36,099 nucleotides of DNA from positions 1 through 36,099 of the forward strand of contig CAYQKO010000001.1 in NCBI GenBank assembly GCA_964418205.1. Reading direction: 5' to 3'. A program made the translations under genes and the position numbers. This DNA comes from an uncultured Muribaculaceae bacterium (GTDB taxonomy: Bacteria > Bacillota_I > Bacilli_A > RF39 > UBA660). Below, piece after piece: positions 10,982 through 15,163 of the stretch (the first letter of the stretch is position 1; each line of letters begins with the position of its first letter). The notes beneath the pieces were generated by a model. The model worked only from the letters and a program-made list of their open reading frames with translations, was not told where the DNA came from and ran no database searches.

Positions 10982-13900
10982 TTATCTATTTTGTAACCCC
11001 GTTACAAACCGATTCATTTGACTTTCCATCATATTATACCACTCAACCCCTAATATGTCAGTTAATTTAGTAATTTCTTCCGTACAGCCATAAATTTTTA
11101 ATTGAAAATAATCAGCTACCATTTCAGCATTTCTATTATAATTACTTTGATAATAATCACTACTATGTCCAAAAATATTAGAAATCTTAGAATCATCAAA
11201 AATACGCTGTTTTGAAAACACAGAAGACAATATATCATCAGAAGCCGCCTTTCCAATAAAATCATTCCTAGTAAGGTACATTGCCACATTATTCAGATTT
11301 TTTTTCACAAGAAAATCTGAAACACTATCAATGGTTTTATAATCAACTAATACATTATTAACATAATTTGAAAGAGCATTTGAATCCAAACTATTAAGAG
11401 CCTTCACGTATGTTTGTTTCAAAGAATCTTTCAATGCAACATTATTAGAAATTTTTGACGCATACATTGCTTGCCTATTTTTAAATTTAGTATTTGTTTC
11501 CATCATCCAGTTTGCAAGTGTATTTGCTGTCTGTGTTTGAATCCGTTTCATAGAATCATCCATGATTTGCTGAAAATTATCAGGTAAAGATTTATTGAAC
11601 AAAACATCATGAAAAGCATGGCCTAATTCATGAGAAAAAGCATCCACACTTGCATCGGATTTTAAAAGAAATTCATTCAAATAAATGCTATTTTTTTTCT
11701 CATAAGCCAACTTTGTACTATCCAAAATATTGGTAGAATAAAAATGAATATCAGGTAAAATCTTATATAAATTTTCAATCATATATTCAACATTCACATC
11801 ACTCGTTCGACTATAAATTTTTTCCAAACTCTGACAGAACAAATTCACTAATTGAGGATCATTATTACTACCTAAACTAGTAGAAATCTTTCTTAAATTT
11901 TCCTGAAATAAAGTTTCATTAAGCTTTAACGTCTCCATATTAATTGAGATTGCCTCTGGCATTTTAGATAAAATTTCATCCATTATTTTCACTGAATTAA
12001 TCTGACTCAGAGTAAAAGGTCGTTTCATAGTCAAATCAAAAGCAGAAAAATTACTATCATGCGTATCAATATAATTAGCAAAAAGTTTACCAGAACTATC
12101 TAAAGTATGTTTATTAGCTACATTTTGAGGTGTATGACCAACAATCATTTCATAACCAATTGGAACACTTAATGATGCCATATGTGTAGATGGTGTACCT
12201 TCCCTATACCACAAAATATTTTTAGCCCGATTATAAATTTCAGATTTCACATTATTTAGTGATAAAGAATAAAAATCACTTAAATTAAAATTTTTATTAT
12301 AATTATATAGTTTAGAATCAAAAACCGCATGAGCCAAAACATATTTTTGATTATTTACAGAAGCAACCCGTTGTAACGGTTGGGACCCAAGCCAATTACT
12401 AAGACTACTTAAAGTAATTTTATTAGAAATTTTACCTTGGCTGTACAAATTTTGAACAAATGAATTAAAATTTTTTAAATTCTCCGTTTCATTAAAAAAA
12501 CCGTTCACCTCATAAAATCCTTCGGCATTTTGAAACAATTTATTTTTTGTACCATCAACTATTCCACGCATATAATTATAAAATTCCACATCATGATTTC
12601 CAGGTATATAAGTAATTCTTCCCTTGTCCGAAAGTTCTTTCATATTCAAAAGAATTTCTAAACCAGAAGTTCCTCGATCCATTACATCCCCCAAAACATA
12701 AAAATGAGATCTAGGATTGTCTTTTAACTGTTTCACCACTTCTTGATACAAATTTATATTCCCATGCAAATCACTAACTGCAAAAATTTCCTGCGGATAG
12801 GAAACAGTAATAGAAGACTTCATCTTAGATAAAACACTCGAATAGCCTGCATTACTTATTTTTGCCACCAACTGTTGCATATTAATATAAGCTTGAGATA
12901 AATTATTAGGAATTTCTAAAGTAACATTGTTTGTTTGAAACATATATTTTTTTAATTGAGGAGTAGTATTTAAAAGTTCAATGAGCTCATTAACACTTGA
13001 CTTAACAGAGTCCGTTCTACTAAATCCTAAAGAGGAAGACAACTTACTTTGAACATTACTAGAATTTTTCACAGATACAGATTGTTCAAAAGATTTATGA
13101 AGTTCCAATAATCGAGCAAAAGAAGATTGTAATTGTGGAGGCGCAGAAACATCTTTTCCAGAATTCTTTAATGAAAATAAAGTTTTTAAAACTGGATTCT
13201 CCATTAAGTTATAATATTCATCTATATCATTTTCCGTTATCATTTCTGCTTTTAAAGACTGTACTTGCCCCTTAAACTTAGATGCTAACTTATTCCAAAA
13301 AGATTGCTTTGGCAATGAACTTTCTTGATTTACTGTAACATCTTTAGGACTAGTAAAACTTTGTGAAGATAAATAACTGCTCAGAACTGCATCCTGAGTA
13401 TCACTTGACTCTTGCATCTCCATAGCTAACTCCAAAGCTTGATCCATAGTTAAATTATAATCTACTCCTTGAAACAATATATTAACTCCACTTAAAGACC
13501 CAGTAGAGACAGCAGATAAAATACCACCATATAACCCAGCTTTTATCATATCAGAAGGCAACTGTGCATAATCCACTTTTTCATCCAAAATAACACTTTT
13601 CATTTGACTTTCAACAACCTCTTGCAAAGATTCCTCAACAGACTCATTCAAAATTTGCTGTAAAGCAAACTGAGCATTCTCATTTAAAACCCCCATATTA
13701 CCTAAAAGTTTTCCTAAAAATAACTCGGAAGCACCACTACCCAAGCCAAACAAAAGGGATGGTAAAAAAGCATTTCCAGAAACCAAAGCTTCATTTTTAG
13801 AATTTCCAACAACAGAAGCCCCCATAGAACCATAGCCAATCCAACTAACTACACTAGAAGACGCACCAAGACCTCCAGCAACCAAACCTGCAGCCATAGA

Positions 13901-15163
13901 AGGAAGCATATTACCAGCACTTACACTTATCTCATACGTTCCACTTAAAATATTCTTATTATTTTGTGCAAAAGCAGATAATACCAACATCTGTCCATAT
14001 TGAGTAGAAGAAATCATCCCCTCTTTATCAAAAATTTTATTAATCCCATCTCCAAAAGTATTAATACCATCTGCTATACCTTTTCCTGAAGTTTTTAAAT
14101 AATTCGTTATGTCTGTCTCACTAATATTAAGCTCAGAACACTTTTGGATAAACTCCTCTTGAGAAGACATATCATCAAGTTTAATCTTAAGATCAGAAAC
14201 ACTATTCACAAACTCCAAAGCGTTCTTAATTCCTACTCGTGAATTAATAGAATCTTCCAAAGCAATAATATACTGATTTGCTTCCTTAAACCCTTTATTT
14301 TTAAAAAGAAAATGATACATCATCTTTTCATCTTCACTTAAAACCTCATAACGCTCTACCGATTTCAAAGACGTATTAAAAAAACAATAAGGATAATAGG
14401 AAGCTAAATTCTTTCCATCTTGCTCTAAAGTCTCTGCTACCATAACAGCATCCACACCAACAGAAGGAGCAGAATTAATATCAAAATTTGCTAAATCATA
14501 ATCATTCTTATAATTTGACACAAAATCCTGGTATTCATTCGTTTCAACAATGGCTAGATAAGGTAATACTTTAAGCTGTTGATCTAAAGAATACTTATAA
14601 GCTTTTAAAAAAGAAATATCTTGTTCCAAAGAAACTAATTGTTGTTGATAATCCTGATAAGAAAAACCCATATTCGCCTCAAAAGCCTTTTCAAAACTTT
14701 CCTGATACTCCTCTGTCATTTGATTCACTTGAAGAACAAGATCATCATAAGACTGTAAGCCATCAACATAAGAAGACATACTCATCATTTCAGCCATTTT
14801 TTGATTTCTATACTCTTCTGGTGTTAAAGCAAAAACAGAATCACCACTACTAAGATCTTCTACAGAAACATACGTAAGTCGAAATTTCTGAAAATTCTTT
14901 TCTAACTCTTTTTTTCTTTCTTGCAAATCTTTAACTGTTTCTTTACATACAACCTCTATATTACTTGCACAGGCTACATTATAATCAAAAATATGTTGCC
15001 AATCTGCATCCGAAAAATCATCATCTATATTTTGATAATCTTCAAAATTAACATCCTCATAAGTATTTTTTACCTGAAAAACATTTTTATTGTTTTTCAA
15101 AAGATTGGGTATACTTACCGTTTTCAAAGAAACATTAGGTTTAACAAACTTAATAGAATTCAT
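10982..15163 (-). CDS. 1393-aa multidomain protein, a candidate T7SS-exported polymorphic effector (helical N-region, Gly-rich hydrophobic module, PPP-family metallophosphatase domain, HExxH domain)
   Basis: It is an uninterrupted ORF with an AGAGGGTGA RBS and no signal peptide. The PPP/metallophosphoesterase motifs are DLHG (12761..12772), GDVMDRG (12671..12691), GNHD (12590..12601) and VGHTP. HELGH is at 11618..11632. GxxxG-type repeats (GLVAGGLGASSS, GYGSMGASVVG, FGLGSGASELFLG) lie at about 13690..14020. It is in the same transcriptional string as essC-esaB-tatD. Confidence 0.85.
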   Translation of the reverse strand: MNSIKFVKPNVSLKTVSIPNLLKNNKNVFQVKNTYEDVNFEDYQNIDDDFSDADWQHIFDYNVACASNIEVVCKETVKDLQERKKELEKNFQKFRLTYVSVEDLSSGDSVFALTPEEYRNQKMAEMMSMSSYVDGLQSYDDLVLQVNQMTEEYQESFEKAFEANMGFSYQDYQQQLVSLEQDISFLKAYKYSLDQQLKVLPYLAIVETNEYQDFVSNYKNDYDLANFDINSAPSVGVDAVMVAETLEQDGKNLASYYPYCFFNTSLKSVERYEVLSEDEKMMYHFLFKNKGFKEANQYIIALEDSINSRVGIKNALEFVNSVSDLKIKLDDMSSQEEFIQKCSELNISETDITNYLKTSGKGIADGINTFGDGINKIFDKEGMISSTQYGQMLVLSAFAQNNKNILSGTYEISVSAGNMLPSMAAGLVAGGLGASSSVVSWIGYGSMGASVVGNSKNEALVSGNAFLPSLLFGLGSGASELFLGKLLGNMGVLNENAQFALQQILNESVEESLQEVVESQMKSVILDEKVDYAQLPSDMIKAGLYGGILSAVSTGSLSGVNILFQGVDYNLTMDQALELAMEMQESSDTQDAVLSSYLSSQSFTSPKDVTVNQESSLPKQSFWNKLASKFKGQVQSLKAEMITENDIDEYYNLMENPVLKTLFSLKNSGKDVSAPPQLQSSFARLLELHKSFEQSVSVKNSSNVQSKLSSSLGFSRTDSVKSSVNELIELLNTTPQLKKYMFQTNNVTLEIPNNLSQAYINMQQLVAKISNAGYSSVLSKMKSSITVSYPQEIFAVSDLHGNINLYQEVVKQLKDNPRSHFYVLGDVMDRGTSGLEILLNMKELSDKGRITYIPGNHDVEFYNYMRGIVDGTKNKLFQNAEGFYEVNGFFNETENLKNFNSFVQNLYSQGKISNKITLSSLSNWLGSQPLQRVASVNNQKYVLAHAVFDSKLYNYNKNFNLSDFYSLSLNNVKSEIYNRAKNILWYREGTPSTHMASLSVPIGYEMIVGHTPQNVANKHTLDSSGKLFANYIDTHDSNFSAFDLTMKRPFTLSQINSVKIMDEILSKMPEAISINMETLKLNETLFQENLRKISTSLGSNNDPQLVNLFCQSLEKIYSRTSDVNVEYMIENLYKILPDIHFYSTNILDSTKLAYEKKNSIYLNEFLLKSDASVDAFSHELGHAFHDVLFNKSLPDNFQQIMDDSMKRIQTQTANTLANWMMETNTKFKNRQAMYASKISNNVALKDSLKQTYVKALNSLDSNALSNYVNNVLVDYKTIDSVSDFLVKKNLNNVAMYLTRNDFIGKAASDDILSSVFSKQRIFDDSKISNIFGHSSDYYQSNYNRNAEMVADYFQLKIYGCTEEITKLTDILGVEWYNMMESQMNRFVTGLQNR

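Follow-up and report, generated by a model that had tools for sequence, protein, structure and literature searches.

A candidate family of non-LXG, multi-enzyme effectors linked to type VII secretion in uncultured gut Bacilli

The candidate effector gene, its family and its link to essC

Contig CAYQKO010000001.1 (assembly GCA_964418205.1), from an uncultured bacterium, was analysed over 36,099 nucleotides (nt; this whole stretch is the window in what follows). Its minus strand carries an uninterrupted open reading frame (ORF) of 4.2 kb (10982..15163, stop codon included) for a protein of 1393 amino acids (aa), which we judge, with a probability of roughly 0.7 and from its sequence and gene neighbourhood, to be a polymorphic, multi-enzyme ('polyvalent') effector exported by a type VIIb secretion system (T7SSb) and belonging to an unnamed, non-LXG family. 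From its N-terminus the protein consists of a leader, a long-helix domain (N1a), a core (N1b+N2), two 57-aa spacers, a PPP-type phosphatase and an HExxH domain; the coordinates of all these parts are on the minus strand. An earlier note on this DNA had described the frame as unbroken, as starting 23 nt past tatD and as free of a signal peptide, and it was right on each point: 23 nt separate the start from the tatD stop at 15187, and hydrophobicity peaks occur only from residue 421 on, where the Kyte-Doolittle (KD) profile first exceeds 1.2, so that the protein has no N-terminal hydrophobic segment and thus no Sec signal. The sequence upstream of the start codon reads AAGAGGGTGATAAAAG, with the purine-rich AGAGGGTGA positioned 8-9 nt before the ATG. 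A frame of 4.2 kb in ~30% G+C DNA that has hundreds of homologues is no product of chance.

To delineate the family we searched 1.84 billion representatives exhaustively with HMMER, using residues 1-1200 as the query, obtained 1097 homologues at E<=1e-3 (111 of them at E<=1e-30) and mapped modules on the top 149 matches. Among these, 105 proteins (550-2850 aa) have a common front end, 46 short proteins have only the phosphatase in common, and 8 carry both. Word-index searches, which fail on the composition of this protein, had returned the query alone for the full protein, one protein for an N-module profile and nothing for a C-domain profile. At least 105 sequence clusters keep the front end (residues ~44-600) and exchange their C-terminal enzymes: Pfam identifies C3-like ADP-ribosyltransferase, transglutaminase core and Metallophos domains among this cargo, and domains like the HExxH domain of lethal factor (LF) as well as papain-like peptidases were recognised by eye. 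P0007, a protein of 2849 aa encoded in a T7SS locus (L017; L and P numbers denote our loci and proteins), has six or more modules. The ~600-aa front end matches no Pfam, NCBIfam or PHROG family. An LXG domain, which the earlier note could not recognise either, is absent from Pfam matches to the full protein at E<=1 and to residues 1-383 at E<=5, and from NCBIfam matches; the family is thus a previously unnamed, non-LXG one.

The link to type VII secretion comes from the neighbouring genes. In the window the string of minus-strand genes includes essC (16202..20779), encoding the T7SSb ATPase (TIGR03928, 957 bits vs a cutoff of 778), and an 89-aa EsaB/YukD-like ORF (15952..16221) that also lies directly 3' of essC in 11 other loci. 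Of the 'essC-esaB' string proposed in the earlier note, the essC part is therefore secure, and the esaB label is weak: the window ORF has no Pfam match, and two of its orthologues give full-length YukD matches that remain below threshold. A scan of one genome per species yielded 15 loci of the effector family, and look-ups of individual family members added more; the 15 derive from MAGs (metagenome-assembled genomes) of uncultured gut Bacilli, Mycoplasmatota or Erysipelotrichaceae, with the exception of two contigs that belong to one Muribaculaceae-labelled MAG. The proposed T7SS linkage extends well beyond the window, as a family gene adjoins essC in 12 further loci (L003, L004, L008, L010, L011, L012, L014, L017, L018, L019, L020 and L022), nearly always in the order essC, esaB-like gene, two to five small helical genes, family gene; in L018 essC is instead just downstream of the family gene. 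The small helical genes match Pfam WXG100 in L003, L017, L020 and L022, some of them weakly. One MAG holds four family loci (L007, L008, L009 and L013), L008 with two tandem copies, and such multiple and tandem paralogues within a genome are the behaviour of polymorphic toxin families. Viewed as a set, the EssC, EsaB/YukD-like and WXG100-like genes of the window (15952-23708) and of L003, L004, L008, L010-L012, L014, L017, L020 and L022 may constitute a pared-down T7SS apparatus.

A second tie to T7SSb lies downstream, where a 106-aa protein (10405..10725, minus strand) matches DUF4176 (Pfam PF13780, 93.7 bits vs a cutoff of 25) and is thereby a small, Ltc-type chaperone. DUF4176 proteins are toxin-specific T7SSb chaperones, the small class of which (70-130 aa) includes this size and is speculated by the authors to bind membrane-inserting helices (PMC12478183). 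A DUF4176 gene is also close by in L003, L010, L011, L017 and L020. In four of these loci a family-less ORF of 208-227 aa is found between effector and DUF4176 genes (L003 16709-17335, L010 16255-16881, L011 13128-13811, L017 18841-19473); those of L003, L010 and L011, the three that were compared, are homologous, and the window has no such ORF.

The leader, the N-terminal domains and the conserved core

The leader (residues 1-43; 15035..15163) is disordered, with an AlphaFold2 (AF2) local confidence score (pLDDT) below 50 for residues 1-51. An acidic patch at residues ~35-50 (15014-15061), YEDVNFEDYQNIDDD, with the family consensus EExD, might be an export signal. The N1a domain (residues 44-265; 14369..15034) is matched by its profile in 86 of the 105 members, is modelled with helices at 55-100, 139-165 and 169-206, and is our candidate for the T7SS-targeting part. 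As a whole, residues 1-620 were modelled as all-helical (pLDDT 75; pTM, the predicted score for the overall fold, 0.72). Comparison of the N-module with PDB profiles gave only coiled-coil noise, and a Foldseek search of PDB with the model gave nothing significant.

More widely conserved is the core. Its first half, N1b (residues 266-380; 14024..14368), is present in 104 of the 105 members and in a phage locus (L016, see below), and is marked by the motifs Y..Y...G...A..Y....I....G and GKG..DGI..F..G. Its second half, N2 (residues 381-600; 13364..14023), is present in all 105 and combines Gly/Ala/Ser-rich hydrophobic helices with an acidic amphipathic one; the AF2 model shows five helices of 21-28 residues at a pLDDT of 80-93. 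The motifs of N2 are GNM.P, GN.KN.AL, SE and EG.EE..Q, the last in its acidic helix, and among its Gly, Ser and Asn residues are invariant ones. In every one of the 105 members N2 is the sole hydrophobic region (median maximum KD19 1.48), and nothing outside it reaches 1.6. The 'Gly-zipper-like module' of the earlier note corresponds to residues 421-488, with a 44-residue uncharged run at 412-455; the Gly-rich stretch is real, and rather than standing as an isolated zipper it is part of a conserved all-helical domain of ~335 aa (266-600).

Relatives of this core were found among phage proteins. When searched with Foldseek against BFVD, a database of predicted viral structures, the model matched a protein annotated 'Phage MuF C-terminal domain' (E 1.4e-7 at a probability of 1.0, with 20% identity across 596 columns) and, at E 3e-4 to 2e-3, several polyvalent and 'PolyVal ADP-ribosyltransferase' proteins. 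A scan of IMG/VR returned one phage locus, L016 (UViG_2831503423_000003), a podovirus-like contig with a P22-like portal, tail-fibre repeats and a CHAP lysin. Its structural block encodes on the plus strand a 2754-aa LPD38-containing protein (L016 8843-17107), a candidate ejection or polyvalent protein, whose residues 219-604 match the core profile (55 bits), GNSKNQAL and EG.EE included. A second IMG/VR scan, with L016 as its seed, returned L016 and nothing else. Among the distant members of the family, one matches a PHROG for head morphogenesis. The absence of any tblastn match of the N-module in GenBank phages and plasmids rules out close relatives on cultured mobile elements. In light of the homology to modules of phage proteins, we regard the core (266-600) as common to this family and the phage 'polyvalent proteins' (PMC5512222). 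Its presence in polyvalent virion proteins suggests a membrane-translocation device shared between the two. The idea of membrane insertion or translocation fits three results on N2: no other part of the family members is both conserved and hydrophobic, it does not depend on the cargo, and it recurs in phage virion polyvalent proteins. That N1b+N2 is an autonomous protein-translocation device, common to phage polyvalent/ejection proteins and a large family of T7SS effectors, we put forward as a tentative and rather doubtful proposal.

Spacers, enzymatic domains and a small partner protein

Between core and enzymes the earlier note had seen a Ser-rich linker. The linker is there, and beyond that it houses a conserved 57-aa spacer twice, at residues 643-697 (13073..13237; E 6e-15) and 719-775 (12839..13009; E 5e-18), as detected with a hidden Markov model (HMM) seeded without the window protein. 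P0007 has six copies, the proteins of L003 and L010 two each, and P0008, L001 and L002 one each; in P0007 as in the window protein the spacer falls between modules. Chaperone docking, processing or a role as a hinge are conceivable functions.

The phosphatase (residues 786-1055; 11999..12808) is a PPP/lambda-phosphatase-type metallophosphoesterase. Pfam Metallophos (PF00149) matches residues 793-1014 with 47 bits vs a cutoff of 21.5, and the NinI-like Ser/Thr phosphatase PHROG matches at E 5e-19. The hallmark motifs are exactly where the earlier note had placed them, D798-L-H-G at 12761..12772, G825-D-V-M-D-R-G at 12671..12691 and G855-N-H-D at 12590..12601, with VGHTP at residues 1008-1012. 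Its assignment to the PPP type likewise stands, in that the Pfam threshold is passed and D798, H800, D826, N856 and H857 are conserved among homologues; in an alignment of 55 homologous domains these five together with D829, R830, H945 and H1010 are 94-100% conserved. With metal and phosphate ligands thus retained, the phosphatase is predicted to be almost certainly active. The NCBIfam equivalogs for ApaH, PrpE and PrpA-PrpB score 26-36 bits vs cutoffs of 176-340, 5-10 times below, and Pnkp likewise scores far below its cutoff, so the domain is not an orthologue of ApaH, PrpE or PrpA-PrpB; its clade has signature residues W924, Q931, W985 and R987, and the closest solved relatives by profile are the phosphatase domain of CthPnkp (4J6O, E 6e-5) and PP2A. 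The substrate could be a phosphoprotein, Ap4A-like nucleotides, or RNA 2',3'-cyclic or 3' phosphates. Next to the genes of two other phosphatase-bearing family members, P0091 and P0073, there come first an ORF of 88-98 aa (L021 7380-7616, L022 16534-16764) and then a Spore_Cse60-family gene, both downstream; the phosphatase-only homologues P0013, P0025 and P0022 are on contigs too short to show gene context.

The C-terminal HExxH domain (residues ~1100-1393; 10985..11866) is a recurrent module: P0016 and P0118 end with it, P0089 and P0007 have it in their interior (P0007 after the phosphatase, the order of the window protein), and it also occurs in a 402-aa ORF of L018. The earlier note had described a C-terminal region of ~380 aa; the H1178-E-L-G-H motif lies at 11618..11632 as given there, and the conserved domain is shorter, ~290 aa. 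In all five aligned modules H1178, E1179, H1182, D1310, H1333, Y1337, Y1338 and E1347 are invariant, and the 402-aa ORF of L018 has the HExxH motif as well. An HExxH motif with a distal invariant Glu and Tyr/His is a pattern compatible with a Glu-zincin, for which E1347 and H1333 would be the candidate third zinc ligands. The zincin-like label is accordingly upheld as to an invariant motif in a recurrent module with a putative immunity protein of its own; no known peptidase family emerged for it from Pfam, PDB profiles or Foldseek, and against PDB profiles the domain matched by its bare HExxH motif only. In L018 (418-1626, plus strand) the 402-aa ORF has its first ~35 residues in common with the neighbouring P0016, a 1245-aa family member, the leader being fused directly to the HExxH domain with neither N1 nor N2 in between.

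Directly relevant to this domain is an 82-aa ORF downstream of the effector gene (10707..10955, minus strand), which overlaps the DUF4176 gene by 19 nt. In every locus with an HExxH module, a 78-95-aa ORF lies downstream of the gene that encodes it (as the very next one in L018 and L019), with the common motif [FY]PxxW...K..L..A[IV], and an HMM built from five such ORFs from outside the window found, among 2106 ORFs, the window 82-aa ORF as its sole extra match (E 3.5e-5). By this co-occurrence the 82-aa protein is probably an immunity protein or inhibitor of the HExxH domain. In L018 the putative immunity gene (~80 aa) occurs a second time, just upstream of the 402-aa ORF. That the 82-aa ORF might be a shortened form of the 208-227-aa ORFs in L003, L010 and L011 was also considered, and rejected for want of any similarity.

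Around these genes the window is an ordinary low-G+C spore-former chromosome (rpsI, rplM, yabP/yabQ/divIC, spoVG, veg, yabG, ksgA, metS, spoVT, mfd, pth) with flat base composition. An origin of the region from a prophage or genomic island was rejected given the flat G+C and the housekeeping flanks, and the effector gene, with its housekeeping and T7SS neighbours, is not on a phage or conjugative element. The chromosomal site is the same in L003 and L010 (metS-tatD ... 3D-domain gene-ksgA). The tatD gene (15187..15936, minus strand; Pfam TatD_DNase E 1e-67) is inside the T7SS string of the window, between esaB and effector, and ahead of the whole locus in L003 and L010. Four helical accessory genes of 107, 250, 91 and 393 aa (21086..23708, plus strand) have homologues in related T7SS loci. 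None matches a Pfam family, and hence none is a DUF3130 or DUF3958 Lap gene. Homologues of the 250-, 91- and 393-aa genes sit between esaB and effector in L004, L012 and L022, the counterparts in L003 and L017 are WXG100 genes, and the block of the window is inverted relative to these relatives, diverging from essC. We regard its genes as candidate WXG-like partners or targeting factors. On the other side, a 178-aa protein with an N-terminal transmembrane helix (9820-10356, minus strand) is kept in L003 and L010. It occupies the place that yabE has in B. subtilis and looks like a short 3D-domain (YabE-like) protein, though without a Pfam match.

Interpretation and comparison with known systems

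Taken together, these features are consistent with the following scheme. N1a and its WXG-like helical partners would present the effector to EssC as an export signal, while in the producer the small DUF4176 protein would shield either the semi-hydrophobic helices of N2 or the spacers. Once exported, N1b+N2 might insert into the membrane of a target cell and pass the C-terminal enzymes to the cytoplasm, in the manner of a diphtheria-toxin T domain or a colicin domain. There the phosphatase would strip phosphate from proteins or from nucleotide or RNA ends and the HExxH domain would act as a Glu-zincin-type hydrolase, which in the producer would be neutralised by the 82-aa protein.

Several observations weigh against this interpretation. 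Two family loci, L007 and L013, lack essC in the 7-9 kb upstream, and EssA, EssB and EsaA were not recognisable with Pfam or NCBIfam in the window or the related loci, so that the apparatus may work differently; the three could be encoded elsewhere in the genome. As no similarity of the N-terminal domain to LXG, WXG100 or any PDB entry was detected, it is gene order by which recognition by EssC is proposed. The hydrophobicity of N2 is modest in the window protein (maximum KD19 1.38), membrane insertion being a prediction. For the HExxH domain no peptidase family matched significantly (best Pfam Peptidase_M78, E 0.17), its AF2 model is of medium quality (pLDDT 66), and Foldseek found nothing in PDB below E 0.5. 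No neighbouring ORF is an immunity candidate for the phosphatase. Finally, the source organism is an uncultured Bacilli MAG, and the effector is known here from sequence alone.

Some of these points lend themselves to other explanations. The protein might be exported by the T7SS and be directed at the animal host, or be a non-lethal modulator, with the 82-aa protein as a pro-domain-like inhibitor or chaperone. The cargo types of the family (C3-like ADP-ribosyltransferase, transglutaminase/cysteine protease, LF-like HExxH, PPP phosphatase) are typical of host-directed effectors, the relatives are all from gut MAGs, and the phosphatase lacks an immunity candidate; however, a small protein tied to the terminal enzyme, tandem paralogues and cassette swapping form the pattern of interbacterial polymorphic toxins, and the toxins with which DUF4176 proteins have been associated to date are antibacterial ones of the LXG type (PMC12478183), for which reasons we hold a host-directed role to be unlikely. 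The lack of recognisable EssA, EssB and EsaA would in turn be explained if the protein were a membrane-embedded structural or surface part of a reduced T7SS that replaces one of them and displays its enzymes on the producer, as might be expected of a core that adjoins essC in 13 loci and contains the only hydrophobic helices. Such a component would hardly occur as several divergent paralogues per genome, some of them far from essC (L007, L013), with hypervariable C-termini and a cognate small inhibitor; moreover, the hydrophobicity is borderline for constitutive transmembrane helices (median 1.48), and the core also occurs in phage virion proteins. This makes a structural role very improbable.

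The phage relationship of the core invites the further possibility of a domesticated polyvalent protein of a phage or conjugative element that is merely near T7SS genes and is released by another route (lysis, vesicles, a cryptic element). The multi-domain architecture is as described by Iyer et al. 2017 (PMC5512222), and the distant relative with the head-morphogenesis PHROG fits as well. Yet neither the window nor the 12 essC-linked loci contain phage or conjugation genes, base composition is flat, the order essC, esaB, WXG-like gene, effector (often then DUF4176) is kept across distant MAGs, and GenBank phages and plasmids were blank by tblastn; the chance of such an origin is in our view very small. 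A T7SSb-exported polymorphic effector thus remains our preferred reading.

Akin to LXG toxins (TelA, TelB and TelC of Streptococcus intermedius and YxiD of B. subtilis, with their Lap factors and Ltc chaperones), the effector is linked to EssC, has a helical N-terminal trafficking region, swapped C-terminal toxin domains and paralogues within a genome, and is accompanied by small helical partner genes upstream and by DUF4176 and putative immunity genes downstream. It differs from them in having no LXG domain and, by profile, no DUF3130 or DUF3958 Lap genes, in a front end of ~600 aa instead of ~200 that includes a hydrophobic helical module, and in two or more tandem enzymatic domains with spacer repeats between them. 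The family thereby widens the T7SS substrate repertoire beyond LXG and points to a stripped-down T7SS in uncultured gut Bacilli. The glycine-zipper T7SS toxins (TelE, TspA, TelD) resemble it in their Gly/Ala/Ser-rich hydrophobic helices with small-xxx-small spacing and in being associated with small DUF4176 proteins. There the toxic payload is the zipper itself, at the C-terminus and paired with a membrane immunity protein, whereas the module described here is internal (381-600), payload-independent and followed by soluble enzymes, with no membrane immunity gene downstream.

With regard to its enzymes, the effector shares DxH, GDxxDRG, GNHD and two downstream His ligands with lambda phosphatase (NinI), PrpA-PrpB, ApaH, PrpE and CthPnkp, but falls below the equivalog cutoffs for ApaH, PrpE and PrpA-PrpB and has clade signature residues of its own. 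To our knowledge no T7SS effector with a PPP-type phosphatase has been described, and a full-text literature search combining 'type VII secretion', 'LXG' and 'metallophosphatase' returned no paper, which would make this protein a first candidate. The HExxH domain is reminiscent of Glu-zincins (thermolysin, M3, anthrax lethal factor) and of Tox-MPTase in that HExxH is on a helix, a Glu helix is downstream (E1347, ...E..A.Y..LK), and an invariant Tyr and His could stabilise the transition state; unlike these enzymes, it has ~150 aa of helices inserted between HExxH and the Glu helix and matches nothing significantly, either by sequence (M78 E 0.17) or by fold (Foldseek E>=0.5). Together with the 82-aa protein, it probably forms a new, putative toxin/immunity pair.

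The large polyvalent proteins (PMC5512222) string together several effector enzymes (ADP-ribosyltransferase, zincin, peptidases); the effector, with two enzymes, is likewise a very large protein, and its N1b+N2 core is homologous to a module in MuF-C, PolyVal-ART and LPD38 phage proteins; its gene differs in being chromosomal, within a T7SS operon, and without a MuF or other virion or relaxosome anchor. A T7SS context, a calcineurin-type phosphatase and a transmembrane module go unmentioned in that study (PMC5512222). The route by which cytoplasm-acting T7SSb toxins cross the target membrane is an acknowledged open question (discussion of PMC12478183), for which the conserved, cargo-independent core offers a concrete candidate entry module, tied to injected phage proteins. 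If the translocation device is indeed shared, at least one class of T7SS toxins would cross the membrane of its victim with machinery of the same origin as that of phage protein injection, and strings of unrelated enzymes, here a PPP phosphatase and a new HExxH hydrolase, would be deliverable via a pared-down apparatus of EssC and EsaB only. The resemblance of the core to the diphtheria toxin T domain and to colicin pore-forming domains, with which it has no detectable homology, would be one of functional analogy: each appears to combine a soluble helical bundle, a buried semi-hydrophobic hairpin and conserved acidic residues with an adjacent enzymatic cargo.

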